From Bacteroidota bacterium (lineage in GTDB: Bacteria > Bacteroidota > Bacteroidia > UKL13-3): a DNA stretch of 64,000 nucleotides. Location of the stretch: positions 3,263-67,262 of the forward strand of contig JAZKBU010000007.1 in the NCBI GenBank assembly GCA_040388375.1. Reading direction: 5' to 3'. This document shows, one piece after another, positions 9,356 to 28,905 of this stretch. A model generated the notes under the pieces. That model saw only the letters and a program-made list of their open reading frames with translations. It searched no databases and was not told where the DNA came from. A program made the position numbers and the translations under genes. The number at the start of each line of letters is the position of its first letter. Position 1 is the stretch's first letter.

Positions 9356-9657
9356 ACTTTCTTAAATTCTATTCGTTTATTTAGCCTCCAAACATACAAT
9401 ACATATAGCATGCATTATGTAGTGAAAACACGGTATTTATAGTAGAATATATATTTTCATCTACTTAAAAATAGCCCTGTTTTAAATGTACTTTTATTGC
9501 TGTTTTTTAGGCTAAACTATTATTTGTAAGAAGTTAACACTATCTCGTTATTCATACTTTGTAATGCCGTATGGTAAATAAAAGGAATAAGATTATGTTT
9601 GTTTGCCGACCAAAAGCAGTAATAAATGGCAGCCATACAACAACAAACCATTACAAA

Positions 9658-10788
9658 ATGAAACAACTTATTACCTTACTTGCTATAGCTATATATTCAT
9701 TAAACTTACACGCACAAACCGACAGATTATTAGGTTGCAGGGCAGAGGGGAGTGGAGCCATATTCAGCTCGTTAAACAATGCCAATACCGCCTTTGCCGA
9801 TATTGATACCATACCCAATATGAAGCTGAGTAGTTCAGGCGAAAGTGCTTTTGATGTAAACAATAACCGCTACTTTATTAAAACCAGTTTAGGCATTACC
9901 ATTATGCATTCCGAAACAGGTGCACTGGTAGATACCATTAGTGCAGGAAGCGTTATAAAAGGCATAGAGTTTGACTTAAACACCAATAAAATAGTAGGAT
10001 ATAAAAAAGTAGGCAATGCACAAATATTTACGGCATTAAACTTAACAAGCAGAAGCATTACCACTATTGATACCTTATATGGTGTAAATGTAATAACACC
10101 CGGTGAAAGCACTTTTGACCTTAGTGGCAGCCGCTATTTTACCATAACAAACTTAGGAATAACCATTATAAACGCACAAACAGGAGCCATTATAGAAAGC
10201 ATTGGCAATACAGCCGATATCAATAATTTAGAATATGACTCCGTTGGAAACAGGTTGTTAGGCGTACGCTGGGATGGAGATGTAGAAATACTGACAGCTT
10301 TAAACCTTACCGATAAAACATTTACCGATATAGATACACTGCCCAATGTAAATGCCATTATACAAGGTGAAAGTACTTTTGACAGAAGCAATGGACATTA
10401 TATTATTAAAACCAATTTAGGTATTACCATTATAAATGCCCAAACAGGAGCCATTACCAATCAACCCAACAATTTAGGCGCATTAAAAGGTTTAGAATAT
10501 ATTAATAAATCAATTGCAGTTGGTATACCAAACATAGCAGTTGAAAATACAGTGAATGTTTTCCCTAACCCGTTTAATACCTATACTACCGTTCAGTTAA
10601 ATATACCTGCCAAGCAAGTAACGCTGGCTGTTTACAATGTAAACGGACAACAGGTAAATACCACACATGAAGCATTTGGTAATAGCTTAATTATAAATAA
10701 AGCCGACTTACCTGCCGGCATTTATTTTATGCACTTACTACAAAACGATACAAACAATATAGTAAAAAAACTAATCATAACCGATTGA
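9658..10788 (+). CDS. Secreted repeat protein with C-terminal T9SS sorting domain
   Basis: True start is probably the internal ATG at 9658, which gives the signal peptide MKQLITLLAIAIYSLNLHAQ. At least three internal repeats of about 80 aa (ESxFDxSxxRYF..TxLGITII.AQTGAI....). C-terminus 'VFPNPFNTYTTVQLN...GIYFMHLLQNDTNNIVKKLIITD' is a Por secretion tail. Confidence 0.7.
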   Translation: MKQLITLLAIAIYSLNLHAQTDRLLGCRAEGSGAIFSSLNNANTAFADIDTIPNMKLSSSGESAFDVNNNRYFIKTSLGITIMHSETGALVDTISAGSVIKGIEFDLNTNKIVGYKKVGNAQIFTALNLTSRSITTIDTLYGVNVITPGESTFDLSGSRYFTITNLGITIINAQTGAIIESIGNTADINNLEYDSVGNRLLGVRWDGDVEILTALNLTDKTFTDIDTLPNVNAIIQGESTFDRSNGHYIIKTNLGITIINAQTGAITNQPNNLGALKGLEYINKSIAVGIPNIAVENTVNVFPNPFNTYTTVQLNIPAKQVTLAVYNVNGQQVNTTHEAFGNSLIINKADLPAGIYFMHLLQNDTNNIVKKLIITD

Positions 10789-12702: not shown

Positions 12703-14238
12703 ATGAAACAAATAAAATTACCCCTGTCAAAACAGCACATTGGTTTAGTTGGCATGTTAACTATATGTATTGGTTTTTGGGCCTTTACCGGGATAGAAAA
12801 AAATGAAAATAGCCAGCCTAACAATTACGATAGTTGTGCGTGCTTTTCGCCCAATAACCAACTATCCAAACTAACCGTATATTTTAACAACCAAGTACCC
12901 GGTGATACCAAGCGGCCATTTACCAATCAGTCGCAAGCCGACTGTTTTGCATGGTCAGAGTTTATAAGCGTAAACTGGCCAACCAAAGGAAACTATTTTG
13001 GCGACCCGAACGATTTTTCACCCGTTGCCTGGGAAACTTATATGCCCCGAAACGTATTGTTTCAGGCCAATGGAAATCCGCCTCCCGCATGGGGTACACT
13101 CGTATCAAACGAGTTTGCAGCCAAGTTTAAAACAGAAAAATTAATATATAATAAATCAACAACCAAAGTGCTTACCTTTTTAGGTACAGGTGTCGATACT
13201 ACTATTGACCTTGTTTTTGGCGACCCGAATCAGGCAGCACCTTTCGGGCATCCCAGTTGGTTAGGTGCACAAAACGGAGTGAACCTGTGGTACGAAATAT
13301 TATTGAATAAAGACTATTATGATTTTGTAGTAAAAACAGGCTATTACAATGCCAAAACACAACACGACTCCGCCAAAGCAGGCATCCCTCTAAACTTTCC
13401 ACAAGGCGTTTATAACGGACAAGTAGGAGCCATTGAAATAAAAGCGGCTTGGATGGAACTAACCGATACCATTTCAGCACACTGGAACCGTTATAAAAAA
13501 TCAAAGGCTTATGTGTTAGACCCCGGTACCCGTAAAATGAGACAAGCCACTGTTGCTTTGGTAGGTATGCACATACTGCATAAAACAACCACTCAACCCA
13601 CATGGGTATGGGCTACGTTTGAGCAAATAGACAATGTGCCCGATAAAACAAGACCAGCACCACCTTATGGTTACAACTTTTACAACAGCAATTGCAAAGC
13701 ACAACAATTAAATGTTCCTGCTTCCGCATTGGGATACGACTCATTGACTTCACCAGTAACCATTCCCTGCAATGCCAATATACCGCCACCTTATTATTTA
13801 AAAGCAGGCATGAAATCCGTGCCTTTACAATTAGAACGTACCAATATAATTAATACCACCAATGCGCAACCAATTAATACCAATATGCGCGATACCATTA
13901 AAAAGTATTACCCAAAATCAGTATGGCAATACTACGAATTGGTAGATGTAATATGGTCGCAGCAGGTACAGCCTAACCCAACAAAACCTATTAATGTACC
14001 CAGAAATTTAAATCCCGGTTATATGAATCCCTTAACCATTGTGGCCAATACCACCATGGAAAGTTATGTGCAAGGTACCAATACCTGTACCAGTTGTCAT
14101 ATATACGGAACCATAGCCGACTACCCGCCAGACTCCGTAAACAATACCATTTTCGGTGATTTTAGCTTTGCCATAGGCGATGCTAAATACCCAAAACCTT
14201 TACAGACAAAATGGAAAACAAGTAAAGGCAAACACTAA
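12703..14238 (+). CDS. Hypothetical membrane-anchored protein, 511 aa, with a single C-terminal CXXCH (possible mono-haem c site)
   Basis: N-terminal TM or signal anchor (IGLVGMLTICIGFWAFTG). 'CTSCH' motif near the C-terminus. Starts 15 bp after the 11057 gene, so probably co-transcribed. Confidence 0.6.
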   Translation: MKQIKLPLSKQHIGLVGMLTICIGFWAFTGIEKNENSQPNNYDSCACFSPNNQLSKLTVYFNNQVPGDTKRPFTNQSQADCFAWSEFISVNWPTKGNYFGDPNDFSPVAWETYMPRNVLFQANGNPPPAWGTLVSNEFAAKFKTEKLIYNKSTTKVLTFLGTGVDTTIDLVFGDPNQAAPFGHPSWLGAQNGVNLWYEILLNKDYYDFVVKTGYYNAKTQHDSAKAGIPLNFPQGVYNGQVGAIEIKAAWMELTDTISAHWNRYKKSKAYVLDPGTRKMRQATVALVGMHILHKTTTQPTWVWATFEQIDNVPDKTRPAPPYGYNFYNSNCKAQQLNVPASALGYDSLTSPVTIPCNANIPPPYYLKAGMKSVPLQLERTNIINTTNAQPINTNMRDTIKKYYPKSVWQYYELVDVIWSQQVQPNPTKPINVPRNLNPGYMNPLTIVANTTMESYVQGTNTCTSCHIYGTIADYPPDSVNNTIFGDFSFAIGDAKYPKPLQTKWKTSKGKH

Positions 14239-14275
14239 CTAAGAAACAACCTCTAAACAATCATTCATATATAAT

Positions 14276-14308
14276 CCGTAGCCATTAACTATGTGGCTAC
14301 GGGTTTTG
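14276..14308 (+). terminator. Rho-independent terminator hairpin after the 12703-14238 gene
   Basis: ccgtagcca-ttaactatg-tggctacgg: perfect 9-bp stem followed by gtttt. Confidence 0.5.
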
Positions 14309-14332
14309 AATGATAAATAATTTATCAAAGCT

Positions 14333-14362
14333 AGCACACGCTATAAGCGTGTGCTATTCTTT
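14333..14362 (+). terminator. Perfect 10-bp palindrome AGCACACGCT-ATA-AGCGTGTGCT followed by ATTCTTTT (terminator-like, or an operator)
   Basis: Read directly. A degenerate copy with the same downstream 'GTGTGCTATTCTTTAA' lies at 14578-14610. Confidence 0.4.
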
Positions 14363-14374
14363 TAAATATTTTAG

Positions 14375-14610
14375 TAAATTTAAACACCTAATACAAAAAG
14401 GATGCGAGCGCAGGCCAGACAAAAAAGCGGGCCGCGCATCAAGCCTGTGGGGAGAAGCATTTTTTTGTCTAGCGTTTTTGGATACTTTTTTGGCAATGCA
14501 AAAAGTATCGAAGCAAAAAAAGAGAAGAACATTTATTGCAGGCGGGGACGCCTGCAATGGCTATATAAGATATCTGTGCTAACACACACCTATAGCGTGT
14601 GCTATTCTTT
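14375..14610 (+). ncRNA. Candidate structured RNA: a GC-rich intergenic block bounded by two terminator-like hairpins, containing copy 1 of the 88-nt two-hairpin element
   Basis: Local GC is far above the window average (gcgagcgcaggccagac...gcgggccgcgc...gcggggacgcctgc). Several self-complementary stretches. The small ORFs in the track here overlap on both strands. A -7-like TAAATTTA sequence lies just after the first hairpin. Confidence 0.25.
14475..14561 (+). repeat. 88-nt conserved element, copy 1. Hairpin 1 is gatacttttt/aaaaagtatc; hairpin 2 is ttgcaggcg-GGGA-cgcctgcaa
   Basis: About 85% identical by eye to 24156-24242 in the same orientation. In copy 2 the stem changes that are present keep pairing possible. 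Confidence 0.6.
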
Positions 14611-14646
14611 AATTATTGTAATATTACATTTTAAACAACCTTTAAA

Positions 14647-15066
14647 ATGACAATAGCAAAATACCTTTGGGAGCTGGGCTCCCTCATCATTCTTTTATTG
14701 GGAAGCATTCATTTATACTATACCTTTTTTAGCGATAAATTTTTAACAAGAGATAAAAGCCTGAAGCCTGCGATGGAAAAAAGCAGCCCGGTATTAACCA
14801 AAGAAACCAACATGTGGAAAGCATGGATAGGCTTTAATGCCAGCCATAGCAGCGGTGCTATGTTTATTGGTATAGTTAATATGTATTTAGCTTGGCAATA
14901 CTTTCCCGTATTACAATCAGCCTATTTCTTTTTTATATTCAATATTATAACCATTGCCTTTTATGTATGGTTAGCTAAAAAATATTGGTTTAAAGTACCT
15001 TTTATAGGTGTAAGTATTACTTTAATTTGTTTTATTGTATCGTTTATTTTAGTACTGGCTAGTTAA
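14647..15066 (+). CDS. Small integral membrane protein (four predicted TM helices)
   Basis: Hydrophobic segments throughout. Followed 11 bp later by the methyltransferase gene. Confidence 0.55.
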   Translation: MTIAKYLWELGSLIILLLGSIHLYYTFFSDKFLTRDKSLKPAMEKSSPVLTKETNMWKAWIGFNASHSSGAMFIGIVNMYLAWQYFPVLQSAYFFFIFNIITIAFYVWLAKKYWFKVPFIGVSITLICFIVSFILVLAS

Positions 15067-15077
15067 ATATTTATACA

Positions 15078-15710
15078 ATGGACGACCGTAATCAAACAAC
15101 CATAGAAACCTGGGATAAGCTGGCTGCTGCTTATGAGGAAAAATTCATGGATTTAGATTTATACAACGATACGTATGATACCTTTTGCCAATTGATTGAA
15201 AAGCAAGCAGCACATATATTAGAGATTGGATGCGGGCCGGGAAACATTACCAAATACTTGTTAGCGCAAAGACCTGATTTTAATATAGATGCTACCGATG
15301 CAGCGCCAAATATGGTGAAAGCAGCACAGGAAAATAATCCAACGGCATATTGTACATTAATGGATTGCCACGATATAGATACTTTAACCACCAAGTACGA
15401 TGCAGTGATGTGTGGCTTTTGCATGCCCTATTTATCCAAGGACGATTGCCGGAAATTGATAAAGGATAGTGCTTATGTGTTGAACAGTGGTGGTATATTG
15501 TACTTCAGTACCATTGAAGATGAGTATAACAAATCGGGCTACGAAACCAGTAGCAATGGAGAACATACTATATTTGTTTACTACCACGAAGCAGGTTATT
15601 TAAAAGACTATTTACAGGAAAACAATTTTGAGCTGTTGACTATAGAGCGTAAAGATTATCCGCAGGCAGCACACCCCACTCATATTATTTTTATAGCTCG
15701 CAAAAAGTAA
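15078..15710 (+). CDS. Class I SAM-dependent methyltransferase
   Basis: Motif I 'ILEIGCGPGNITKYL', with an acidic residue in the position expected for motif II. Confidence 0.8.
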   Translation: MDDRNQTTIETWDKLAAAYEEKFMDLDLYNDTYDTFCQLIEKQAAHILEIGCGPGNITKYLLAQRPDFNIDATDAAPNMVKAAQENNPTAYCTLMDCHDIDTLTTKYDAVMCGFCMPYLSKDDCRKLIKDSAYVLNSGGILYFSTIEDEYNKSGYETSSNGEHTIFVYYHEAGYLKDYLQENNFELLTIERKDYPQAAHPTHIIFIARKK

Positions 15711-15835
15711 AGAATTAATTTAACTACATATGATAGTTGCAGCATCAACTATTTTTTTTATTTTTACAAAACCCAACATTGTTTAATATAATTACGTACC
15801 CTTAAAAAAACAACTAATAACTAAAACTAACAACT

Positions 15836-17452
15836 ATGAAAAAATTAATCTACTTATTTCTTGGCGTATTTGCCTTATTGTATAACACCCAACTGAAGGC
15901 CAGCCATGTGGTAGGGTCCGACATGAGCTATACCTGTACCACAACACCCAATGTGTATAAGGTTACCTTAAAAATATACAGGGACTGTAGTGGTATTAAT
16001 TTATGCAAAAATTGTGGCGATAATCCTGTTCCTACAGGTAATACAAATGGTTGTAATACCAGCAACGCAGGTTTTTCAACAAATATTATTGGCATGAGTG
16101 GTACGTGTGCAGGAGTTAATTTTGGTAGTTACACATTAGATGCACTTACAACAAATAATGGTTATGATATTATACAAACATGCAACAATACAAAAACAGT
16201 TTGTACCAATTGTAATACCAGAACAGCAGGTACTTTTAGCCCCGGCATTGAAGTATATATATTTGAGGGTTTAGTTGATCTATCAAGTGTGCCTGCATCT
16301 TGTTGCGTAGTAGGCTTAGAACTAAGCCTTTGTTGCCGCAACACTGCATTAACAACTATGGAACCCGGTAATTTTTATACCAACGCCCAAATAAACAGGT
16401 GTGTGAGTGTTTGTAATTCAGCACCCACATTCTCTAACGAGGCTGTAATTATGGCTTGTGTGGGAGTAGACTATGAATATAATTTAGGAGCTATGGATCC
16501 TGATGGCGATTCATTGAGTTATAATTTAGGAGCTTCGCTTGCAACAGCCGGAGCTAATGTAAATTATATTGCACCTTATTCTCCGGCTTATCCTTTTCCT
16601 TATTTTGGTGCACCCAATGCCAATGCTCCTTTACCGGCCGGCTTACATATAGACCCCAATGCAGGCAATTTGTTTTTCAGGCCTACTGGTGTTTTTGTAG
16701 CTAATTTGGTTATAGAGGTTAAACAATGGCGTAATATAGCAGGTACTATGACTCAAGTAGGTTTAACCAGACGCGATGTGCAATTACAAAGCGTTATGTG
16801 TAATCCAAACCTAGCCCCTAAAATAAAAATATACCAAAATGGCGTACTACAAAGCAACAACCAGTTTTCAGTAAGACCCAATCAACAGATTTGTTTAGAT
16901 ATAGTAGCCGAAGACCAAGAAAACAGTTCAATACCAGCCGATACTACTATACTAACATGGAACAATCCTGGTTTGTATGTACCTGCTATGGCCAATGCTA
17001 CCTTTACCAGTAATTACATAGCGAGTTTACGTAGTATAAACGGTCCCAAAGCCGATAGCTTTAAATTTTGCTGGACACCTCCTACAACAGCCGTTAGACC
17101 ACAACCTTATTTGTTTTCAGTAACCGGTAACGATAATTTTTGCCCCTTTAAATCTTTAAGTATAAAAGGGATTAATATTAAAGTGGAGAATCCATTAGGA
17201 GTGAAAGCTATAGCTGCTGAAAACGATTTAATGGTATATCCCAATCCAAGCCAATCATGGGTTACGCTTACACATAAAACCAATTTAGCAGGTAAAAAGT
17301 ATGTGGTTTTAAGTGTAGACGGACAGCAGGTATTAAATGGAAAAATGAATGCTTTTGAAACCATGATTAATGTAGAGTCATTAGCCAATGGTGTTTACCT
17401 GATAGAAATTGAAGGAGCCAATACTAAAGGTTTGAAACTAATAAAAAACTAA
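15836..17452 (+). CDS. Cys-rich secreted protein with C-terminal T9SS sorting domain
   Basis: Signal peptide MKKLIYLFLGVFALLYNTQLKA. Many Cys in the N-terminal half. C-terminus 'MVYPNPSQSWVTLTH...NGVYLIEIEGANTKGLKLIKN' has the Por tail pattern. Confidence 0.75.
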   Translation: MKKLIYLFLGVFALLYNTQLKASHVVGSDMSYTCTTTPNVYKVTLKIYRDCSGINLCKNCGDNPVPTGNTNGCNTSNAGFSTNIIGMSGTCAGVNFGSYTLDALTTNNGYDIIQTCNNTKTVCTNCNTRTAGTFSPGIEVYIFEGLVDLSSVPASCCVVGLELSLCCRNTALTTMEPGNFYTNAQINRCVSVCNSAPTFSNEAVIMACVGVDYEYNLGAMDPDGDSLSYNLGASLATAGANVNYIAPYSPAYPFPYFGAPNANAPLPAGLHIDPNAGNLFFRPTGVFVANLVIEVKQWRNIAGTMTQVGLTRRDVQLQSVMCNPNLAPKIKIYQNGVLQSNNQFSVRPNQQICLDIVAEDQENSSIPADTTILTWNNPGLYVPAMANATFTSNYIASLRSINGPKADSFKFCWTPPTTAVRPQPYLFSVTGNDNFCPFKSLSIKGINIKVENPLGVKAIAAENDLMVYPNPSQSWVTLTHKTNLAGKKYVVLSVDGQQVLNGKMNAFETMINVESLANGVYLIEIEGANTKGLKLIKN

Positions 17453-17484
17453 GTTGAATACGAGCCATACGGATGGCTTTTGTA

Positions 17485-17528
17485 AAAAGACCTCAGTACT
17501 TATCTGTTTGTACTGAGGTCTTTTTTTA
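17485..17528. terminator. Bidirectional rho-independent terminator between convergent genes
   Basis: gacctcagta-[11-nt loop]-tactgaggtc: perfect 10-bp stem, with A-run 5' and T7 3'. Confidence 0.7.
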
Positions 17529-17903
17529 TTATTTGCTTACCTCACCGGTAGCAGGTGCCAAAAACATGGCTTTGTTGCTTAAGAATACCGATACCCATAA
17601 TAAAGTTAAAAAGGCAGCAGCCATAGGAGGGTGTCCACTGGCTAACTCTATTGATAAAGCGCCACCCAAGTAACAACATAACAATAAAAAACCAATGCGG
17701 CTTGTTTTGGGGTAAACGAAAAGCGCTACCGCTAGTATTTCTATAATACCCAATAATGTAATGTAGCTACCCAATCCAATTTTGCCTAAACTGTCTACTA
17801 TTTGCGGTGATGCCATCAGCTTCATTACCCCGCTCATTACTAACATTAATGAAGGAATAGCCATAAGTACTATAGCAATAATACGTGTTGTTTTGTTTGT
17901 CAT
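17529..17903 (-). CDS. DoxX family membrane protein
   Basis: Likely start is the internal ATG at 17903 (MTNKTTRIIAIVLMAIPSL...). Four TM helices, about 125 aa, typical DoxX size. Divergent from the HxlR regulator. Confidence 0.65.
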   Translation of the reverse strand: MTNKTTRIIAIVLMAIPSLMLVMSGVMKLMASPQIVDSLGKIGLGSYITLLGIIEILAVALFVYPKTSRIGFLLLCCYLGGALSIELASGHPPMAAAFLTLLWVSVFLSNKAMFLAPATGEVSK

Positions 17904-17970
17904 ATTTGTTTTGTTTTTAAATTGTTTTGTAATGCGGGCAAATGTATATACGTTTGCTATATAAAAGTAA

Positions 17971-18010
17971 GTACTATACAATAGTATAGCACTATACAAA
18001 AGTATAGTAC
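17971..18010. promoter_or_regulatory. Nested palindromes in the DoxX/HxlR divergent promoter region (candidate HxlR operator)
   Basis: The outer arms gtactatac and gtatagtac are reverse complements. Inner palindromes are tatacaatagtata and ctatacaaaagtatag. Confidence 0.4.
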
Positions 18011-18051
18011 TTGCATACCACAAAAGCTAAACGTAAAATTGACAAGAAATT

Positions 18052-18405
18052 ATGCCTGAATTAATAGTACACAACAAGGAGCAATGCACAAAAGCCATTC
18101 TGCCTGTAAGAGATGCGTTAGATATATTAAGTGGAAAATGGAAGCTACCTATTATCATTTCATTATCGTTTGGCAATAAAAGATTCAGCGAAATATCCAA
18201 ACACATTCCGGGTATTACAGATAGAATGCTTTCTAAGGAATTGAGGGATTTAGAGCAAAACCAATTAGTGAAACGAACTGTGTACGATACCGTGCCGGTA
18301 GTGGTTGAATACTCCATGACCACCTATGGTAAATCGTTAGAGAAAATAATACAGGAATTACAGGTTTGGGGAGCCAAGCACCGCAAGCGTATTATGGAGA
18401 AGTAA
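18052..18405 (+). CDS. HxlR family winged-helix transcriptional regulator
   Basis: 'ALDILSGKWKLPIIISL...FSEI...ITDRMLSKELRDLEQNQLVKRTVY' fits the HxlR/DUF24 signature. 117 aa. Confidence 0.85.
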   Translation: MPELIVHNKEQCTKAILPVRDALDILSGKWKLPIIISLSFGNKRFSEISKHIPGITDRMLSKELRDLEQNQLVKRTVYDTVPVVVEYSMTTYGKSLEKIIQELQVWGAKHRKRIMEK

Positions 18406-18410
18406 AATGC

Positions 18411-20897
18411 TTACCTTTTTACGCCACCTTTGGCTACGGCACTGGCAGTCCAGGGGTCATCGGGCCAGGCATGTTTGGGGTACCTGCGTTTCAATTCTTT
18501 TTTTACTTCAAAATAAGTATTGTTCCAAAAGCTGCGTAAGTCAGCCGTTACCTGCACGGGTTTAAAACCGGGCGATAACAAATGCAACACCAATGGAATG
18601 GTATTGTTGTTTATTTTAGGCGTATCGGCCATACCAAATACCTCCTGCAAACGCACGGATAGGATAGGAGTTTCGCCATTGGCTAAATAAGCAATAGCTA
18701 TGTTGGAGCCACTGGGCACGGGTATTTTAGCCGGAGCCAGTTTGTCTAACGCTTGTTGTTGCTCCCAGCTTAAATGGTTCTTCAATGCTTCGGTTATATT
18801 TATTTTCTTTAAATCTTCCGGCTTTTTTACCTGGGTTAAATAGGGGGCAAGCCATTCTTTATTGGTCAGTAATAAATGAAAGGTGCTTACATCGGGCCAG
18901 TTATCGGCACTATTCCATTTACGTAAACTTAAAATACGGTTTTGTAATTGGGCAAAGCTTTCATCAAAATTCAACAAGGCTTCACCTTCGGTTTTTATGG
19001 CATTGCAAATAGCATCAACCAAATGCTCTGCACTTGGTGCAGGCAATGGTTTTGATTGCAATACAATACTGCCAATGCGTAAATCTTTGGTGGCAATTAA
19101 ACCACCTTTGCGGGTATCCCAGGTTATTACTTCGCGTTCTTTCACCATCGGCAATAAGTCTTTTGGGTTTAAGGGTGAAGCCATAAATATTTTTCCCAAG
19201 CCATCGCGCGTATCAATATGGGCTACGGCTAACCAGGGCTCGTTGGCTAAGTTATCCCTATGTCCGGCAGTAGCTATTTTACCATTGGCTAATTGAAACT
19301 GTGCATTGTTTCCAGGTCTGGCAAAAGCAATGCGTTCCGGATAAGTATAAGCCAATAATAAACCTGTTTCGTAATCATCAACGGGTGTGTTTTCGGCTTC
19401 TACCTGTAACATTTTACGGTACGAGTCGGCTACCTTGTCTATGCGCCCAAACTTATTGCCCAAGCTGTTGGTCTGTCTGGCCCTGCGCAATGCTTCAATA
19501 CGTAAGTTTATATCTATACCACTGTCTTTTGGTAAAGGATCACGTTCCTCTAAAATAGCAGCAATGTCGGTAGCTAAAGCAATGGCATTATCTGTTTTGG
19601 CTTTTAAAAGCATGTGCGCTATACGTGGGTGGCAAGGCAACTGGTGAATGGCTTTACCATGCTCAGTAATACGTTTATTTGCGTCTATGGCATTCAGATT
19701 GGTTAATACATCAAAAGCTTGTGCAACGGCTGCTTTGGGTGGTGGTGTTAACCAGGTTAATTGTTCAATATTGGCAATACCCCATTTGCTCATATCCAAT
19801 ACCAGGGCGGCTAAATCGGCTTCCATTATTTCGGGTGTGCGGTGTTCAGCCAAACGCTGGTGTGTGGCGTTGGTCCACATACGGTAACAAACGCCTGCAC
19901 TTAAACGCCCTGCACGCCCTGCGCGTTGGTCGGCTGAGTCTTTGGTAATGCTTACTGTTTCCAAACGCGATAAACCTGACTTAGGGTCGAAACGCGATGT
20001 GCGGGCAAAGCCTGTATCTATTACTATTTTAATACCTTCAATGGTTAAACTGGTTTCGGCTATGGAGGTAGCCAATACTACTTTACGTTTACCTGTTTTG
20101 TTAGGCATAATAGCTGCGTATTGTTCGCGTTGTGGTAATTGTCCGTATAAGGGATGAATAGCAAAATCAGTGAGTTTGTTTTTTAACAACTCGGCACATT
20201 TTCTTATCTCGCCTTCGCCCGGTAAAAATACCAATACATCGCCCGGGTTTTCTTTAACCGCTTTTATTACTGCCTGCGATGTTGTTTCGGGCAGCAAAAA
20301 TGGGTCTTGCTCGCCTGTATAATGTATAGCCACCGGGTATTGTTTGCCCTCGCTTACGGCTACAGGGCAGTTTAACAAAGCTGTTAGCTGTGGCATATTT
20401 AAGGTTGCCGACATAATCATAATACGCAAATCGGGCCTTAATATTTGTTGTGCTTCGCGGCATAAAGCCAAAGCTACATCTGCAAATAAACTGCGTTCAT
20501 GAAACTCATCAAATATAACCAGCCCCACATTTTCCAAAGCATTATCAGTATGCAACATGCGGGTTAAAATACCTTCGGTTACTACTTCTATTTTGGTGTT
20601 TGGGCCTATTCTGTTTTCAAACCGAATGCGGTAACCTATGGTTTGCCCTACTTCTTCTTCCAATAGTTCAGACATACGCATGGCAATACTGCGCGCAGCT
20701 AAACGCCTTGGCTCCAGCATTATTATTTTTTTACCGCTGAGCCATGTTTCTTCCAGTAAGGTTAAAGGTAATAAGGTACTTTTTCCTGCTCCCGGAGGGG
20801 CATTTACGATGAGGGTATTGTTATTGGTTAAATGTGTTTTTACCTCAGTAATAATATCGGCAACGGGTAAATTATATTGGTATGGATTAAATGACAA
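18411..20897 (-). CDS. hrpB: ATP-dependent helicase HrpB (DEAH-box)
   Basis: Walker A GAGKST, DEFHERSL, and the HA2 and HrpB C-terminal regions. 828 aa matches the HrpB length. Confidence 0.9.
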   Translation of the reverse strand: MSFNPYQYNLPVADIITEVKTHLTNNNTLIVNAPPGAGKSTLLPLTLLEETWLSGKKIIMLEPRRLAARSIAMRMSELLEEEVGQTIGYRIRFENRIGPNTKIEVVTEGILTRMLHTDNALENVGLVIFDEFHERSLFADVALALCREAQQILRPDLRIMIMSATLNMPQLTALLNCPVAVSEGKQYPVAIHYTGEQDPFLLPETTSQAVIKAVKENPGDVLVFLPGEGEIRKCAELLKNKLTDFAIHPLYGQLPQREQYAAIMPNKTGKRKVVLATSIAETSLTIEGIKIVIDTGFARTSRFDPKSGLSRLETVSITKDSADQRAGRAGRLSAGVCYRMWTNATHQRLAEHRTPEIMEADLAALVLDMSKWGIANIEQLTWLTPPPKAAVAQAFDVLTNLNAIDANKRITEHGKAIHQLPCHPRIAHMLLKAKTDNAIALATDIAAILEERDPLPKDSGIDINLRIEALRRARQTNSLGNKFGRIDKVADSYRKMLQVEAENTPVDDYETGLLLAYTYPERIAFARPGNNAQFQLANGKIATAGHRDNLANEPWLAVAHIDTRDGLGKIFMASPLNPKDLLPMVKEREVITWDTRKGGLIATKDLRIGSIVLQSKPLPAPSAEHLVDAICNAIKTEGEALLNFDESFAQLQNRILSLRKWNSADNWPDVSTFHLLLTNKEWLAPYLTQVKKPEDLKKINITEALKNHLSWEQQQALDKLAPAKIPVPSGSNIAIAYLANGETPILSVRLQEVFGMADTPKINNNTIPLVLHLLSPGFKPVQVTADLRSFWNNTYFEVKKELKRRYPKHAWPDDPWTASAVAKGGVKR

Positions 20898-20959
20898 GCG
20901 TGGTATGTAATTAGGGCTGCAAGTTTAGCAAAAATTGATGAATAAGGCAGGCTTGTTTT

Positions 20960-21003
20960 GCAGGTATAAAAACACAAAATACCTTGGCTTTACAAGCAAG
21001 GTC
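20960..21003 (-). terminator. Probable terminator of the kinase/LytTR operon (minus strand)
   Basis: On the minus strand: ccttgcttgtaaagccaagg hairpin followed by uauuuuguguuuuu. Confidence 0.4.
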
Positions 21004-21033
21004 TTTTAATATATAATACATTTTTAGCAAGGT

Positions 21034-21783
21034 TTATTTGCTCAACCAGTTTTTAAAATCGGCAGAGCGGTCAATACTTACTATTAACTCCTCGGTACTG
21101 GCAGGGGTGGTTTCTATTTTTATACGCCCTTTGGTATAAGCAGTCATTTGTTTAATAGCCTGAATTTTTATAATAAACTGTCGGTTTATACGGAAAAAAT
21201 ATTCAGGGTCTAACATCGTTTCCAGTTTATCTAAAGTATAATCAATCAGGTGGGTAGATTCATCGTTGAGTATTACTTTAACATAACGTCCCTCTGATTG
21301 AAAGTAAGCAATATCATCTATACCAATAGAGCGTATTTTACTGCCTGATGTAACCATAAAACGTTTCTGAAAAGTGTCCTGATTTTTCATTTCATGTAGT
21401 AGCTTATCCAATACTTCTTTCGATACAACTTTTGTATCGTGGTACTTATCCAGTGCATTTTTAAGCTCACTTTTATCAAAGGGTTTCAACAAATAATCAA
21501 TGCTGTTTAGCTTAAAAGCTTTCAGGGCATAGTGGTCGTAAGCGGTAGTAAAAATAATAGGTGCTTTTACCACTACGCTGTCAAAAATACTAAAGCTTAT
21601 ATTGTCTGATAAATAAATGTCAAGGAAAACAATATCGGGTGCCAGGTTATTTTTAAACCAGCTAATGGCTTTGCTTGCTGATGGAATAACCGCCAATACT
21701 TCTATGCTGCTATCTATTTCCTGCAATAGCTTTTGTAAATAGTCAGCCGCTATTTGTTCGTCTTCAATAATCAATACTTTCAT
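21034..21783 (-). CDS. LytTR family two-component response regulator
   Basis: Receiver domain (MKVLIIEDE...DIVFLDI) plus C-terminal LytTR DNA-binding domain. Overlaps the upstream kinase gene by 4 nt. Confidence 0.9.
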   Translation of the reverse strand: MKVLIIEDEQIAADYLQKLLQEIDSSIEVLAVIPSASKAISWFKNNLAPDIVFLDIYLSDNISFSIFDSVVVKAPIIFTTAYDHYALKAFKLNSIDYLLKPFDKSELKNALDKYHDTKVVSKEVLDKLLHEMKNQDTFQKRFMVTSGSKIRSIGIDDIAYFQSEGRYVKVILNDESTHLIDYTLDKLETMLDPEYFFRINRQFIIKIQAIKQMTAYTKGRIKIETTPASTEELIVSIDRSADFKNWLSK

Positions 21784-23609
21784 ATAGTGTGGGCTTGTAT
21801 CAATGGAATAATGACTATGTATTTATTATCGCGGGTTTCAAAACGGGGCGTTTCGTTGTGCAAAATAGCAAATCGGGCCATAATATTTTTTATACCAACG
21901 CCCATGCTGTTTGTTTTGTGCGTACGTATTTGCAGGTTGTTTTCTATAATCAGGTAATGCTGTTGGGTGTATATATTTATTTGTAGAGGATGCTCTTCTT
22001 CTATGGTATTGTGTTTAAGCGCATTTTCTATCAACATTTGTAAACAAAAGGGCGGAATAAATAGCGCCATACTTTCTGCCGCTATGTTTTTATGCAATAA
22101 CAAATTATTGCCAAAACGTATTTTTTGCAAATACATATAATCATCTACCAAGTTTAGCTCCTCTTGTAAGGGTATCAGCGAGTCGCCTTTTTGTGAGAGT
22201 ATGTTGCGGTAAAATTTAGAGAATACGGTTACAAATTCGGCAGCCTTTTTTACATCGGTTTGTATAAGCGAGCTTAAAGCATTTAAGCTGTTGAATAAAA
22301 AGTGTGGACTAATCTGGCTGCGTAGTATTTCGTATTGTGCCATTATGTTTTCGGTTTGTAAGCCTACATTTTCGGTGGTTAGGGTTTGGTTGGTTTTCTT
22401 TTTTAACCGGGTATTTCTATACAGTAAAAACACCAGTAAAAACATAGCCCCAAGCAATATTATAAATATGGTTTTTTGCAATAAGGCTTTGCTCAGTTCG
22501 CTTTCCTTTAACTCGTTGGCGGTTTGTAGCAAAGCCAGCTCTTTGTTTTTACGTTCTACGTTAAACTTGGTTTCTGTTTCGGCCAGTTGGGCTACATGCG
22601 ACTGGTTAATTAACGAATCGTTTAAGGCTATAAACCTGTTTTGCCACGCGTAAGCTTCGGCCGGCTTATGGGTTTGAAAACACAGCTCCCCCATATTGCG
22701 GTAGTAGTTGGAAACTACCGAGCGTGCGCCTATTTGTAAGGCCAATTGGTAGCCGCTGTCCAGGTAGTGTTTGGCTTCCTTATAATTACCTGTGCCTATT
22801 AAAACACTGGCCAGTGTGGTGGCGGTGCTGGCACAGCTTAGTTTGTTATTGGATTTTTTCTGGTATGCAATGGCCTGTTTTAAATAGTCAATGGCTTTGT
22901 CGTTTATGCGTAACTCCGCATAGGCTATACCTATACTGCAGTATAATACAGATTGATTAACAAAAGTGCTGTCCTTGTGGGCAGAAGGAAGCGCTTTTAA
23001 ATACAAGGCAATGGCTTCTTTGTATTTTCCTTCCGAGGTATAAATATTGCCTATATTATTGGCTATGGATACATATTTTTTATAATCGCTGGCTTCTAGT
23101 TTCGATAGTGCTTGTAGGTAAAAACCCAATGCTTTCTTTTTGTTGTTTAAATAAAAATAGTCGTTGCCAATATTAACCAGGGCAGATATATATCCTTTTT
23201 CATATTGAAGCGAATCGTACAGGCGCAAAGCATGTAAATGCAAATCAACGGCCTCGTTGTATAAACCTTCTGTGCGCAGCATATTGGCGTTTAAATCCAT
23301 GGCCATAGCCAAACCCGGAGCGTAATGTATTTGGGTGCTTAGTGTAGTTATTTCGTGTGTTAAAACTTTACCCGCTTCTCTGTCAGATAAAACAACGCCA
23401 AAGGCCAAATCGCGCAGCGCTTTTACCTTGTTGCTGTCGTTAGGCATGTGCTTAATAGCCTTTTGCAGGCTATCTATATTGTGGTTTTGCGCATGTATGG
23501 GGTTGCTAAAACAGACCCAAACAATGGTTAGTATCCATAAGGCTTTAAACATATGGCAACTTAAATATTTCAGCGCTAAAAAAGTATTATGCTGTGCTGA
23601 AAGTGTCAT
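21780..23609 (-). CDS. Sensor histidine kinase, LytS/YehU type (His_kinase domain), with periplasmic TPR repeats
   Basis: Signal or TM segment, TPR-like repeats, one TM (IFIILLGAMFLLVFLLY), then 'SPHFLFNSLNALSSLI' His_kinase motif and an ATPase domain. The internal Met about 20 codons in (MFKALWILTIVWVCF) may be the true start. Confidence 0.8.
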   Translation of the reverse strand: MTLSAQHNTFLALKYLSCHMFKALWILTIVWVCFSNPIHAQNHNIDSLQKAIKHMPNDSNKVKALRDLAFGVVLSDREAGKVLTHEITTLSTQIHYAPGLAMAMDLNANMLRTEGLYNEAVDLHLHALRLYDSLQYEKGYISALVNIGNDYFYLNNKKKALGFYLQALSKLEASDYKKYVSIANNIGNIYTSEGKYKEAIALYLKALPSAHKDSTFVNQSVLYCSIGIAYAELRINDKAIDYLKQAIAYQKKSNNKLSCASTATTLASVLIGTGNYKEAKHYLDSGYQLALQIGARSVVSNYYRNMGELCFQTHKPAEAYAWQNRFIALNDSLINQSHVAQLAETETKFNVERKNKELALLQTANELKESELSKALLQKTIFIILLGAMFLLVFLLYRNTRLKKKTNQTLTTENVGLQTENIMAQYEILRSQISPHFLFNSLNALSSLIQTDVKKAAEFVTVFSKFYRNILSQKGDSLIPLQEELNLVDDYMYLQKIRFGNNLLLHKNIAAESMALFIPPFCLQMLIENALKHNTIEEEHPLQINIYTQQHYLIIENNLQIRTHKTNSMGVGIKNIMARFAILHNETPRFETRDNKYIVIIPLIQAHTI

Positions 23610-23747
23610 TTATTGACATGAAGGAGCAGTATACTATTTTAAAAATGACACATTTAAACGGTATGAAAAAGGGCTTAGTAGTTTACGAGTTAATAAGAGA
23701 TGGGTTGATTGGCTGCCTACTTAAAACCCGGACAGTATGAAAAAAAT

Positions 23748-24052
23748 GTTTTTGGTACATTCCTGAAACTGGGACTATATAAAAAATATATTTTTATTAC
23801 GTTCCTCAAATTCGGAATGTATATAAAATAAATTTTTACTACGTTCCTGAAACTAGGACTGTATATAAAATATATTTTTATTATGTTCCTGAAACTCGGA
23901 ATATATATAAAATAAATTTTTACTACGTTCCTGAAATGAGGAATGCATATAAAATAAATTTTTATTATGTTCCTGAAATGAGGACTGTATATAAAATAAA
24001 TTTTTACTATGTTCCTAAAACTAGGACTATGTGTAAAATAAATTTTTAGTAC
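23748..24052 (+). repeat. Tandem array of seven 42-bp direct repeats (plus a degenerate eighth), consensus TTTTTAYTAYGTTCCTGAAAYNRGGAMTRTATATAAAATAAA
   Basis: The GTTCCT core recurs at 23759, 23801, 23843, 23885, 23927, 23969 and 24011, exactly 42 bp apart. Units alternate between two subtypes (ATTAY...CGGAAT and ACTAC...AGGACT). No unique spacers. Confidence 0.9.
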
Positions 24053-24155
24053 TTATTTATAACTAACATATCATATAAAAAGCAGAAATACCTTCAGCGT
24101 GCGTACAGAAGTATTTTGCCCTTATTGTGTCTTCAGACCAATAAGTAGCCTGGCA

Positions 24156-24242
24156 TTTTTGGATACTATTTTGCTCATGCAAAAAGTATTGAAGCAAGAA
24201 AAGGGAAGAATATTAATTGCATGCGGGGACGCCTGCAATGGC
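24156..24242 (+). repeat. 88-nt conserved two-hairpin element, copy 2
   Basis: Aligns with 14475-14561: ...tttttggatact..tttg...atgcaaaaagtatYgaagcaaRaaaRgRgaagaaYattWattgcaKgcggggacgcctgcaatggc. Confidence 0.6.
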
Positions 24243-24352
24243 GTAATTACAATCCGTAAAGTGCTTCGTTAACTATATGAACTGTAAGATATAAAAATGT
24301 AATCCTACCTATATACCAATATTTATATTTTTTCGTTTTACATATTAGTTTT

Positions 24353-24376
24353 AAAAAAAAGAGTGTTTTTCCTACT
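24353..24376 (+). repeat. Fourth copy of the AAAAGAGTGTTTTTCC box
   Basis: aaaaaaaagagtgtttttcctac, followed by a partial second copy aaaaaagggtattt. Confidence 0.45.
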
Positions 24377-24672
24377 AAAAAAGGGTATTTATACTATTGG
24401 ATAGTAATAAATACATATTTACTATTGCAGTCAATATATATATAAGTAATATAACAAATATAGATAAAAAGCCCATAGGTGCGCTAACACCTACAGGCCA
24501 TGTAAATAAATAAAACGTTGTCCTATGCTGATAAAACTACATCCTATTTAGCTACGAAAGTAGCCAAATAACAAAACATAGCAATACTGATTTGCTGATA
24601 CACTAAAAATGCCATAACCCCAAGGCTAGCTTTAAATAGTGAGGTAAATAACAAACTATTAAACAAACAATA

Positions 24673-25167
24673 ATGAAACGAATAATAATTATAATGACTA
24701 CTCTTGTACTTGTTGCCTGTAGTCGTGAAAAACAACAGGAAAGTGCTTTACCCTTTAAAAAAGCTATTCCTAATCTTACCTCGACAAATACAAAAAAAGA
24801 CCCTAAACCTACTTCTGGTAAAAATGCAAAAATGATAAAAACCAATAAATGTGATGCAACAGTGACTACAAACTGTACACTGATGAATAAAGGCACACGG
24901 GAAGCTCCCAGAAAGTATGATGAGTTGGTGGATATGCTTAAACTGGCGCCTGCAAATGGTAATCATTATGTGAGCGATTTATTTAACTCAAGTGATTTTG
25001 AAGAAATTTCGGAACAACTTGACTCCATAGATTTGGTTAAATTGCAAAGTGATACTTACTATTTAAATATTAATTATGAAGCTGACGATGTAGTAGTTTT
25101 TATGGCAGGACCTACTAACCCAGTTAGTACGGAGAATATGGACTTTGGATTTCAATTACCTAAATAA
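24673..25167 (+). CDS. Hypothetical lipoprotein (164 aa)
   Basis: Signal peptide with lipobox LVLVAC-S. Lys/Thr-rich linker, then a globular C-terminus. Confidence 0.55.
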   Translation: MKRIIIIMTTLVLVACSREKQQESALPFKKAIPNLTSTNTKKDPKPTSGKNAKMIKTNKCDATVTTNCTLMNKGTREAPRKYDELVDMLKLAPANGNHYVSDLFNSSDFEEISEQLDSIDLVKLQSDTYYLNINYEADDVVVFMAGPTNPVSTENMDFGFQLPK

Positions 25168-25176
25168 TACACTTAC

Positions 25177-26277
25177 ATGTTATCAATTAAAAATATAGCT
25201 TTTGTATTCCTGGCAATTTGTTTTTTTACAAGTTGCCGGGAAAAGGTAAATGGAAATACTTACAATGCTGACGAGTTCATTACGGACTCTTTTACCATAA
25301 ACATTAACGATTTTAACAGCGTTTGCCAGTTTATCAATTTTACCAATGCCCAAACTATTAACTCATTTGACCCGGTAAAAAATGAAATTGAAACCTATCA
25401 ATTAAAGGGTAATACCTTTGTGCTTGATAGTACTCAAAACATACGGGTGAATCAGCGGGTGGATTTTTACTTTTTTACGCCTTTGCAAGGCAAATACTAT
25501 TTAACGGATGCGGAGAACAATTGGACCATTGTAGACGCTGCTACTAAACAATCGCAGTTTTATAAACGAACCGCTACTATTCCGTTTATTGAACAAGAGT
25601 ATCGCTTGGGTTATAACAGACAAACTCCCCTTATTAAACAGGGTAATGTATTATACTGCCAATATACAAGCCCTGCCGGGACAGCCCAAATAGATGAACA
25701 TATTATGGCTTCGTTTACGCCTCAAAATGGTGTTATTGATAACATCAGTAATTATTTGGATAAGCCTAAGGCTTTATATAATTATGTAGAAAGACTGCAT
25801 ATGTATTGCGTAAAGGATAGTATTGTATCACTTCTGTTTCCTTGTTTTGATACGCTGTATAGGTTAAACATAACCACAGGTATGGTTACCAAGAAGGTAC
25901 TCCAAAACAAAAACTTTTGTTTACCTGTACAAACGCAATTAAATGTTGATGATCCCAATTATTTTAGTGCTTTGAGTAAATATACTTATGCTAATTTCAG
26001 GTACTACGGTATTCAATACAACCCTGCTACCGGGCATTACGTAGCCTATTATAAATTACCTGTAAAACATGTAAAGGATAGAAATATAGTTGATACAGAC
26101 CAACCGCTACAAGCCATTGTAATGGATAGTGATTATAATATTCTTAACTATGTATTGTTTAAACCTGTTTATGATGACCCTTTTTGTTTTGCAGTGCATC
26201 CCACAAAAGGTATAGCCATTCCTTTACTTAAAGAGCCTAAAACCAATGCTAAGAATTTTTATTATTTTAATTTTTAG
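25177..26277 (+). CDS. Hypothetical lipoprotein (366 aa)
   Basis: Lipobox FFTSC-R. Rich in Tyr, Asn and Thr. Size and composition are compatible with a beta-propeller-type Bacteroidota lipoprotein, but the family is not assigned. Confidence 0.6.
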   Translation: MLSIKNIAFVFLAICFFTSCREKVNGNTYNADEFITDSFTININDFNSVCQFINFTNAQTINSFDPVKNEIETYQLKGNTFVLDSTQNIRVNQRVDFYFFTPLQGKYYLTDAENNWTIVDAATKQSQFYKRTATIPFIEQEYRLGYNRQTPLIKQGNVLYCQYTSPAGTAQIDEHIMASFTPQNGVIDNISNYLDKPKALYNYVERLHMYCVKDSIVSLLFPCFDTLYRLNITTGMVTKKVLQNKNFCLPVQTQLNVDDPNYFSALSKYTYANFRYYGIQYNPATGHYVAYYKLPVKHVKDRNIVDTDQPLQAIVMDSDYNILNYVLFKPVYDDPFCFAVHPTKGIAIPLLKEPKTNAKNFYYFNF

Positions 26278-26656
26278 TTGCTTGCTTGGGTGTAAACAAG
26301 TCAACTACACTACCAATAAGGAGTTTTTTAGCTATGCGGCTATGTGGGGTATAAAACCGGAAACGGATACGCAATTGTATGCGCTTTTTCCGGCTAACCA
26401 ATGTACCAAATGTTTTACGATACACAATACCAACCCAGCTTTAACCCATCAAGTTACCATTATACATGCTTTGAATAAGGAAATGTTTAGTGGTTTTCAA
26501 TCTATGTATTACGACAGTACAAATACGCTGCAAACCCTGCAACTGGTTAATTATGCCAATACTTTTGTAGTGGTTAAAAACAAAAACATAGTAGCCATTA
26601 GCCCTATTACCGACTTTTTCCCCCAAGCGGATAGTTTACTGGCAGTATACCCGTAA
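26246..26656 (+). CDS. Hypothetical small lipoprotein (136 aa)
   Basis: Lipobox CLLGC-K. Overlaps the preceding gene by 32 nt. Confidence 0.5.
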   Translation: MLRIFIILIFSCLLGCKQVNYTTNKEFFSYAAMWGIKPETDTQLYALFPANQCTKCFTIHNTNPALTHQVTIIHALNKEMFSGFQSMYYDSTNTLQTLQLVNYANTFVVVKNKNIVAISPITDFFPQADSLLAVYP

Positions 26657-26803
26657 TAGCGTACCATAATCAGTTAATTTAAATAAACACCAAGTATAAA
26701 AAATAGATTTCTCCTTTATTAACAACCCAATAATAAATACCCAAAGTTTGTAAATGGTATTAAAATAAATATTTTTGGCTTTACTAAAACTAAAAATTTA
26801 TTT

Positions 26804-27766
26804 ATGGAACAAACACCTACAACTGAAACAAAAAATTACCAACTTGATTATCACGGCAGAGGCAGTGAGTTATTTGGGGTACTTATTATTAATTGGCTGC
26901 TTACCTTAGTAAGCTTGGGTTTATATTACCCTTGGGCCAAAGCCAAACAACTCAACTATTTATTTGGAGCTACCTCTTTAAATAATGATAGGTTTGCTTT
27001 CCACGGCACCGGACAAGAAATGTTTAAAGGCTTTATTAAAGCCATAATACTGTTTGCTATTATTTATGGTATTTTTTTCCTGTTTATTTATTTGCAAATG
27101 CCTGTTATAGGTGCATTGCTAATGTATATAGGCTTTTTGGCTTTAATTCCATTGGCTATACATGGTTCGTACCGTTACCGCATGTCAAGAACCTCATGGA
27201 GAGGCATTCGTTTTGGCTACCGTGGCGATAGAGATAAACTAATAGCGCTATTTGTAAAAGGTATATTATTAACCATCGTAACTTTTGGTATTTACGGGGC
27301 TTGGTTTGCTGTTAATTTAAGAAGGTATGTATTGAGTAATGTACGTTTTGGCAATATTAGTTTCCGCTACGAGGCCGATGGTAGTGATTACTTTTGGTTG
27401 GTATTTAAAGGTTATATATTGTCAATTTTAACCTTAGGTATTTATAGTTTTTGGTGGATGAAAGAAATGTTTGCCTTTTTTGTAGATAACCTAAGCATGT
27501 ATAAAGATGGCGAAAGAATAAACTTACATTCAAAAGCAACCGGAGGTGGTTTTTTTGCTTTAATGGTGGTTAATTTTTTAATTATAGTATTTACCTTAGG
27601 CTTGGGTTATGCTTGGGTAGTAACCCGCACCATGCAATTTATGGCCGAAAATATAGTAGTAGAAGGCGATATAGACTTAGACACCATTAGTCAAACCGAA
27701 GAAGAATTTACTGATGCTACAGGCGAAGATGTAAGTGACTTTTTAAACCTTGACATTACGTTATAA
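26804..27766 (+). CDS. DUF898 (YjgN-like) family inner membrane protein
   Basis: Repeated 'LGLYYPWAKAKQLNY / FGIYGAWFAVNLRRY / LGIYSFWWMKEMFAFF' helix-pair modules typical of DUF898. Confidence 0.8.
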   Translation: MEQTPTTETKNYQLDYHGRGSELFGVLIINWLLTLVSLGLYYPWAKAKQLNYLFGATSLNNDRFAFHGTGQEMFKGFIKAIILFAIIYGIFFLFIYLQMPVIGALLMYIGFLALIPLAIHGSYRYRMSRTSWRGIRFGYRGDRDKLIALFVKGILLTIVTFGIYGAWFAVNLRRYVLSNVRFGNISFRYEADGSDYFWLVFKGYILSILTLGIYSFWWMKEMFAFFVDNLSMYKDGERINLHSKATGGGFFALMVVNFLIIVFTLGLGYAWVVTRTMQFMAENIVVEGDIDLDTISQTEEEFTDATGEDVSDFLNLDITL

Positions 27767-28857: not shown

Positions 28858-28871
28858 AGCTTCCCATAAAA

Positions 28872-28905
28872 AAGCGCAAAGGCCAAGCCTTTGCGCTTTT
28901 TTTAT
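28872..28905 (+). terminator. Rho-independent terminator
   Basis: gcgcaaaggc-caa-gcctttgcgc: perfect 10-bp stem followed by T7. Confidence 0.75.

Follow-up and report, generated by a model that had tools for sequence, protein, structure and literature searches.

The two related stretches found in the 64,000-nt segment of Bacteroidota chromosome analysed here (hereafter the window) probably belong to a family of short non-coding interspersed mosaic repeats, which recombination or gene conversion between copies would spread and homogenise at the DNA level, possibly with mobilisation in trans. The family is specific to a clade of uncultured Bacteroidota. Its copies are non-coding and intergenic and stand at several non-orthologous loci; they are assembled from separable modules in varied combinations, truncations and orientations, and the content of a given locus varies between close strains, as seen at the site of the second window copy and at a histidine kinase locus. 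Scattered, cut-down, inverted and swapped copies are the behaviour of selfish or recombining DNA rather than of a conserved regulatory RNA. On present evidence this is no new kind of biology.

The window is ordinary Bacteroidota chromosome of ~35% G+C, with genes for T9SS cargo proteins, TonB receptors, two-component systems and helicases; its HrpB is identical to MES2381693.1 from a metagenome-assembled genome (MAG) labelled ‘Bacteroidota bacterium’ at NCBI. Pfam searches of 44 ORFs of the window, six of which were also compared with NCBIfam, revealed no mobile-element gene, whether transposase, reverse transcriptase or TnpB. Repetition of other kinds is present: two adjacent very large ORFs at 55184-63007 (1127 and 1273 aa) share segments of 72-80% identity at a spacing of 3600-4440 nt, and the T9SS cargo ORF at 9571-10788 contains an internal 264-nt periodic repeat (9871-10456).

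A repeat scan returned positions 14469-14561 (within copy 1) and 24150-24242 (within copy 2) as the sole two-copy family of the window; the two align without gaps over 93 nt of the same strand at 87% identity. The hairpin 2 20-mer GCGGGGACGCCTGCAATGGC has two exact occurrences in the window and none in 100 shuffles, and a covariance model built from six copies detected no third copy when the whole window was scanned with filters off. Both copies are intergenic and lie between real genes, in agreement with the first-pass annotation, which had described an intergenic pair of about 85% identity in the same orientation. Its two hairpins are also borne out. Hairpin 1 of copy 1 pairs GATACTTTTT (14481-14490) with AAAAAGTATC (14500-14509), the 10-bp stem originally described, and its counterpart in copy 2, which had been read as imperfect, has 12 pairs with one bulged A. 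Hairpin 2, for which a GGGA loop and one mismatch in copy 2 had been proposed, pairs ATTGCAGGCG (14535-14544) with CGCCTGCAAT (14549-14558) at 10 of 10 positions in copy 1, and 24216-24225 with 24230-24239 at 9 of 10 positions in copy 2. In folding, copy 1 reaches a z-score of -4.9 and copy 2 one of -2.3.

The only ORFs that cross the copies are of 82-90 aa at copy 1 and 57 aa at copy 2. Coding capacity of the element was rejected, since a translation of copy 1 in all six frames, used as protein query, found no homologue at E-values up to 10. An 82-aa ORF is annotated across copy 1 in the sibling MAG GCA_040384025.1 (L035; 16251-16499, equivalent to window 14402-14650), where it overlaps the start of a LIC_13387-family gene; it has no homologues and is probably spurious. 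That the pair might prove to be an already described Rfam family, as envisaged in the first-pass annotation, found no support: Rfam 15 gave no match at the gathering score anywhere in the window. With E-values up to 10, no match overlapped copy 2, and copy 1 was hit by mir-3910 and Pseudomonas P31 at 15-16 bits (gathering scores of 95 and 40, respectively), which are chance matches far below threshold.

Judging from alignment of the copies, the 88-nt unit described at first is merely the 3′ part of a longer modular element of ~167-196 nt (Table 1); it stands as that part, although its limits were drawn too short, homology continuing upstream in both copies. The modules, labelled A to F in this analysis, keep the fixed order A-B-C-D-E-F. 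Modules A and B (ggatgcgagcgcaggccagac and aaaaaagcgggccgcgcatcaagcctgtggggagaagcattt, respectively, in copy 1) form a G+C-rich 5′ part that is closed in copy 1 by an inverted repeat (14414-14426/14461-14473). Module C is a small hairpin (gttgttg-tgtctcccgac-caacaac), D is the A/T-rich hairpin 1, E is a purine-rich linker, and F is the G+C-rich hairpin 2 followed by GGC, that is ATTGCAGGCG-GGGA-CGCCTGCAAT-GGC. All copies share a sharp 3′ end (...CAATGGC) and vary in 5′ content. For copy 1, this shared end sets the right limit and the end of a flanking duplication the left one. In copy 2, a divergent 5′ part is followed by the module C hairpin (24121-24145), hairpin 1 (24162-24190), the linker, hairpin 2 (24216-24239) and GGC; its module C hairpin carries a compensatory change relative to the second copy of the L023 cluster described below (L023b) and to L027. 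An inverted-repeat scan of four full copies revealed internal hairpins alone and no terminal inverted repeats. Of the two arms of the imperfect direct duplication that brackets copy 1, the left one carries the terminator hairpin at 14332-14356 along with an AT-rich stretch that resembles a promoter, and the right one includes the stretch immediately upstream of the LIC_13387-family ORF at 14647.

Table 1. Coordinates of the element copies, their modules and the flanking duplication in the window
Feature	Position	Strand	Remarks
Copy 1, full-length (A-B, remnant of C, D-E-F)	14391-14561	+	86% identity over 176 nt to L028 9488-9660
Modules A and B of copy 1	14400-14462	+	Shared with L028 and L027; module A with L023b
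Hairpin 1 of copy 1 (module D)	14481-14509	+	10-bp A/T-rich stem, 9-nt loop
Purine-rich linker of copy 1 (module E)	14510-14534	+	Length varies by 3 nt between copies
Hairpin 2 and GGC of copy 1 (module F)	14535-14561	+	10-bp G+C-rich stem, GGGA loop
Copy 2	24076-24242	+	Bounded where divergence in the window-L035 alignment sets in and stops abruptly
Left arm of imperfect ~78-nt direct duplication bracketing copy 1	14313-14390	+	From repeat scan
Right arm of the ~78-nt duplication	14562-14641	+	Terminator-like hairpin at 14585-14601

Dispersal of the family is evident from related genomes. An exact search with a 19-mer of hairpin 2 across 185,579 species-representative genomes and the JGI metagenomes matched at least 17 loci; those that were real among the matches listed are L002, L004 and L006, and the others were rejected as chance matches in G+C-rich or coding DNA. 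Further relatives were gathered via the flanking proteins, which brought the related DNA compared to ~0.3 Mb. L002 lies on the same contig as L023, where three copies are found within 600 nt, inside a 935-nt intergenic region: one is full, one nearly full and one (L023c) is missing the 5′ arm of hairpin 1, and an isolated 3′ half of hairpin 2 is present in addition. Module F is the most widely conserved part of the element, standing alone in L006 and occurring three times within 850 nt in L004, where it is joined to a different 3′ module. The contig of L002 and L023 (CAYTWI010000089.1) is labelled ‘uncultured Bifidobacterium sp.’, yet it has 39% G+C and Bacteroidota-type genes (TPR-His_kinase/LytTR) and is syntenic with the L025 and L027 contigs, which carry a Por_Secre_tail gene; it is probably mis-binned.

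The same modules recur in altered arrangements in close relatives of the window. The MAG GCA_040384145.1 (L028), whose HrpB differs from that of the window at 6 of 828 residues, contains a full element at 9488-9660 (Table 1), upstream of a TPR-histidine-kinase/LytTR operon and thus at a locus that is neither orthologous nor otherwise related to that of copy 1. Directly downstream of it, modules A-B′-C are repeated in inverted orientation. At the orthologous kinase locus, L027 has the B-C modules alone, L025 and L026 have a module F remnant together with another shared module, ‘G’, and L023 has its cluster of three copies; the content of this locus differs, for instance, between L026 and L028 or L030. 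Solitary 3′ halves of module F occur in both L026 and L023, where they keep the orthologous downstream flank and differ in what lies upstream. Overall, copies pile up in clusters and their truncation points fall at hairpin loops. The element also breaks assemblies, as expected of a repeat, with short-read contigs ending inside or beside it in six Logan contigs (L018, L024-L027 and L029) and one NCBI contig (L030). It is absent from ~0.2 Mb of other related DNA (L019-L021, L031-L034), and the family may be low-copy within genomes.

Carriers outside the chromosome were sought as well. Two of three patterns searched against viral contigs had no match and the third gave a single chance match inside a GIY-YIG-like ORF, and blastn with the element found nothing in phage and plasmid sequences. 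No recombinase gene was found linked to the copies at the loci examined. The sole Y1 transposase gene among the examined sequences (Y1_Tnp, IS200/RAYT-like) is at L028 1-334; it is flanked by hairpins unrelated to the element and followed, within L028 1-760, by several unrelated REP-like hairpins, CAACTCCGAAGGAGTTG and AACCCTGCATGAAATGCAGGGTT, which suggests a separate REP/RAYT system in this sibling genome.

Comparison of orthologous sites between close strains provides insight into how the copies change. The L035 MAG aligns with window 13390-30916 at 3.3% divergence. At copy 1, modules A-C show no difference over 84 nt and modules D-F six over 93 nt (6.5%), three of them in the linker; a T-to-A change in the L035 hairpin 2 breaks a stem pair, and a base has been inserted in its loop. 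Identity of A-C in the sibling MAG may reflect some constraint on this part. Two consecutive intrinsic terminators, at 14277-14308 and 14332-14356, follow the 511-aa ORF upstream of copy 1. The first, a genuine terminator 200 nt away from hairpin 2, differs between the window and L035 by a compensatory A-T to G-C change; the second has its loop inverted from ATA to TAT, similar to what is seen for a hairpin 2 loop in L035 described next.

The copy 2 site has undergone a change of a different order. Here the element (24076-24242) is 28% different from its L035 counterpart between flanks that are ~98% identical, with 1.9% divergence in the downstream intergenic DNA and 1.4% in the adjacent kinase gene, and it holds the most divergent 150-nt window of the 17 kb compared. 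With 78% identity to copy 2, 79% to L023b and 86% to D-F of copy 1, the L035 occupant is no nearer to the element at the equivalent position than to paralogues, and the loop of its hairpin 2 is inverted. By these identities the L035 site carries a different family member, with the caveat that MAG assemblies may mis-join repeats and exaggerate the apparent ‘replacement’. In the more distant L019 (HrpB 95.5% identical), window 23720-26731 is absent and 36 nt stand in its place. Besides copy 2, this 3.0-kb segment includes a 42-nt tandem array and three ORFs (164, 366 and 136 aa) that lack a Pfam or NCBIfam match.

The intergenic DNA downstream of copy 2 (24243-24630) is unusually conserved; it shows two differences over ~380 nt relative to L035, compared with 5-6% in the neighbouring ORFs, and contains two stem-loops on the - strand, at 24470-24499 (with a T-run) and 24544-24571. 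Together these match the Rfam ‘trpB motif’ below threshold (31 bits, gathering score 59), as do, similarly weakly, the two terminators at 14275-14368. The 24243-24630 region may represent an unannotated - strand RNA or attenuator.

Conservation of both stems in the pair had been taken in the first-pass annotation to favour a function at the RNA level, as an sRNA or a leader. Our results do not sustain this. In the two-hairpin alignment of six sequences and the hairpin 2 alignment of 10, sample sizes that give low power, 94-95% of cells pair; this reflects sequence conservation, as most pairs never vary (13 of 20 are invariant in the former and 6 of 10 in the latter). A compensatory double change is seen at one pair only. 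Covariation is not above that of shuffled alignments, at least 120 of 500 shuffles reaching the observed value on every measure at these low-powered sample sizes. Five cells are G-U on the + strand, read as three events, and three cells are A.C or C.A mismatches, the equivalent of G-U on the opposite strand; stem changes favour neither strand. Nor is the element conserved at or above the level of its neutral surroundings at the copy 2 site, where 28% divergence contrasts with 1.9% in adjacent DNA and 3.3% overall. Shuffle-level covariation, the damaged hairpin 2 in the L035 ortholog of copy 1 and replacement of the element at the copy 2 site together argue against selection on RNA structure. 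What was found is essentially the picture of degenerate, scattered copies lacking covariation that the first-pass annotation itself had named as counter-evidence. Its further option of a ‘structured repeat’ fares better, the two-hairpin module being conserved in several copies.

The most credible alternative, though itself unlikely, is a multi-copy family of + strand sRNAs in which hairpin 1, linker and hairpin 2 form a scaffold for protein binding or stability and the variable 5′ part provides target specificity. The single orientation of all copies within a cluster would be in keeping with this, as would folding stability in excess of shuffled sequence, the + strand G-U changes and the one compensatory pair. 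In addition, copy 1 follows the duplicated AT-rich promoter-like stretch and is succeeded 16-24 nt downstream by a terminator-like hairpin, an arrangement that could yield a discrete RNA of ~215 nt. However, when upstream sequences were read by eye, the copies had no promoter in common and their 5′ flanks were unrelated, and no Bacteroidota-type promoter (TAnnTTTG) was seen by eye within the element on either strand. Copy 2 and the L023 and L028 copies have no terminator following them. The A.C mismatches offset the G-U pairs, truncated and inverted fragments are common, and, as set out above, covariation stays at shuffle level, hairpin 2 is damaged in the copy 1 ortholog, the element is the least conserved segment of the copy 2 neighbourhood and Rfam offers no match.

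Behaviour of module F in distant MAGs raises another possibility, which we consider decidedly unlikely: that a dedicated recombinase, site-specific or of HUH type, acts on it as on dRS3 of the NIMEs or attC of integrons, with the other modules as cassettes exchanged there. This would be one particular mechanism of exchange at the DNA level. It is the sole module common to distant MAGs, where its partner modules vary; its isolated 3′ halves retain the downstream flank with different upstream content (L023 and L026); the entire element has been replaced at the copy 2 site with the flanks left intact, and the loop is inverted in one allele. A G+C-rich palindrome between A/T-rich variable units is also the arrangement of NIMEs (PMC1797815). 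On the other hand, no recombinase gene is linked to any copy, clustered copies are direct rather than flanking inverted pairs, the sample is small, and the end points fit ordinary homologous recombination or palindrome-driven template switching equally well. It is very doubtful that a putative HUH or site-specific recombinase recognises hairpin 2 and swaps whole non-coding module cassettes at fixed sites. Were this the case, it would account for the presence of two family members at one site in near-identical strains, and would constitute a NIME- or integron-like device that rewires the upstream regions of signalling and secreted-protein genes.

A role in cis is highly improbable. The element would then serve neighbouring genes as a leader, an attenuator or paired palindromic operators, perhaps tied to TPR-histidine-kinase/LytTR operons, or else act on the - strand as a terminator-like element resembling the pneumococcal SPRITE repeat. 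Copy 2 and the L023 and L028 clusters do lie in long regions upstream of TPR-His_kinase/LytTR operons, tandem arrays adjoin two of these three cases, and hairpins 1 and 2 are near-perfect palindromes of operator size. However, copy 1, L004 and L006 are not beside such operons, the genes downstream of the two window copies are unrelated, and the window and L023 differ in how the element is oriented towards the kinase gene. The element is also missing at 54%-identical kinase orthologs (L031-L034) and at the L019 ortholog of the window kinase. Homology over ~175 nt, including the non-palindromic linker, points to common descent rather than to convergent operators. As to termination, the first-pass annotation had held that no U-tract follows either copy, which is correct for the + strand, where hairpin 2 is not an intrinsic terminator in either copy, and incorrect for the - strand, on which a pyrimidine- or U-rich tract does follow hairpin 2. 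A scan flagged hairpin 2 of copy 1 as terminator-like on that strand, yet no - strand gene ends there or at copy 2. A functional link to TPR-His_kinase/LytTR operons was rejected as the main explanation, being seen at two of five independent loci and absent at the distant orthologs and at copy 1, and is retained as a weak rival.

The kinase loci have features of their own. Between the TPR-His_kinase/LytTR operon (21034-23609, - strand) and copy 2 lies the tandem array (23682-24093), consisting of ~10 units of 42 nt, each with the inverted repeat TTCCT-N6-AGGAA; L035 has three units fewer. A different array, with a period of ~21 nt, lies between the element copies of L023, upstream of a paralogous kinase operon. 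Both arrays may serve as direct-repeat binding sites of LytTR type. The orthologous TPR-His_kinase/LytTR pair of a more distant relative (L031 10001-21384, and also L032 and L034) has as neighbours genes for a T9SS cargo protein, an ATP-grasp (MvdD-like) protein and a C39-peptidase ABC exporter; the locus resembles one for a peptide signal or RiPP, a clue to the stimulus of these kinases.

Two further readings of the pair were dismissed: it is not the leader of a shared downstream gene, as the two downstream ORFs are unrelated, nor attL and attR of an island, since housekeeping and signalling genes, in part conserved in L019, occupy the intervening DNA, no integrase is present and the copies are just 87% identical.

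We therefore return to the interspersed mosaic repeat as the preferred explanation and propose that the copies would exchange by gene conversion or recombination, with the conserved hairpin modules serving as anchors, and may be mobilised in trans by an enzyme encoded elsewhere than nearby. The palindromes would then act at the DNA level, as recombination or recognition sites and as mutation hot spots, and any effects on neighbouring transcripts would be incidental. Mobility is inferred here, since the search yielded neither a transposase nor terminal inverted repeats nor a regular duplication of the target site.

Proteobacteria, neisseriae and streptococci have well-described small interspersed repeats; to our knowledge, hardly any have been described in environmental Bacteroidota, for which the present family provides a concrete, alignable example. 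In practical terms, such modules break metagenome assemblies, attract spurious ORF calls and could easily pass for a structured RNA motif when genomes are screened comparatively. That an entire element has been replaced between strains with ~98% identical flanks also offers a tidy case for the study of repeat exchange.

Among known systems, miniature elements derived from transposons share with this family their small size, lack of coding capacity, high degree of base pairing and presence or absence between strains, which applies to MITEs and to palindrome-associated transposable elements derived from IS200/IS605 alike. Classic MITEs have terminal inverted repeats and a short target-site duplication. 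The element, in contrast, lacks both the inverted termini and a short duplication of constant length at its target: the duplication at copy 1 is imperfect and of ~78 nt, and none comparable is found at copy 2, L028 or L023b. Subterminal hairpins combined with a lack of inverted termini would be in line with the IS200/IS605 style. The 5′ junctions of five full copies show no conserved target tetranucleotide, and neither the 44 scanned ORFs of the window nor the examined loci include a cognate tnpA or tnpB gene.

REP/BIME and REPIN-RAYT systems likewise combine extragenic palindromes with other motifs in intergenic mosaic clusters (PMC2817692, PMC3733652). A REP is a palindrome of 20-40 nt, and the tag that defines it is GTAG or CGTC at one end (PMC3733652). 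Unlike a REP, the element has neither tag at the foot of its palindrome, CGTC occurring in module F solely across the loop on the - strand and not at an end, and it does not form inverted REP pairs. A RAYT would be a single-copy Y1 transposase gene between the same palindromes; the one Y1 gene among the sequences examined (L028 1-334) adjoins a different hairpin, CAACTCCGAAGGAGTTG. REPs also reach tens to hundreds of copies per genome, and for the element the assembly breaks are the sole hint of such repetition. Membership of both REP/RAYT and classic MITEs fails on defining features, given the lack of a GTAG or CGTC tag, of terminal inverted repeats and of a regular target duplication.

More extensive likeness is found with BOX of Streptococcus pneumoniae (boxA, boxB repeated n times, boxC), which is also <200 nt, non-coding, intergenic and modular, with a fixed module order, variable presence and copy number of modules and strong folding if transcribed; its complement similarly varies between strains and its mobilising enzyme is uncertain (PMC3049150). 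The ends of BOX are reported to be similar to the terminal inverted repeats of ISSpn2 (PMC3049150), whereas the element, from another phylum, has no terminal inverted repeats, no sequence similarity to BOX and no tandemly iterated internal module. In neisserial NIMEs, 20-bp dRS3 inverted repeats separate RS units of 50-150 bp, and the arrays change from strain to strain and are regarded as substrates for recombination (PMC1797815). Shared with them is a short G+C-rich palindrome that recurs between diverse variable units of lower G+C (PMC1797815), and the content of the element likewise varies between strains. However, dRS3 (ATTCCC-N8-GGGAAT) stands on both sides of RS units and has a known linkage to phage integrase, whereas module F has no such known link, stands at the 3′ end only and occurs in short clusters. 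The closest counterparts of the element in organisation are pneumococcal BOX and the neisserial NIMEs (PMC3049150, PMC1797815).
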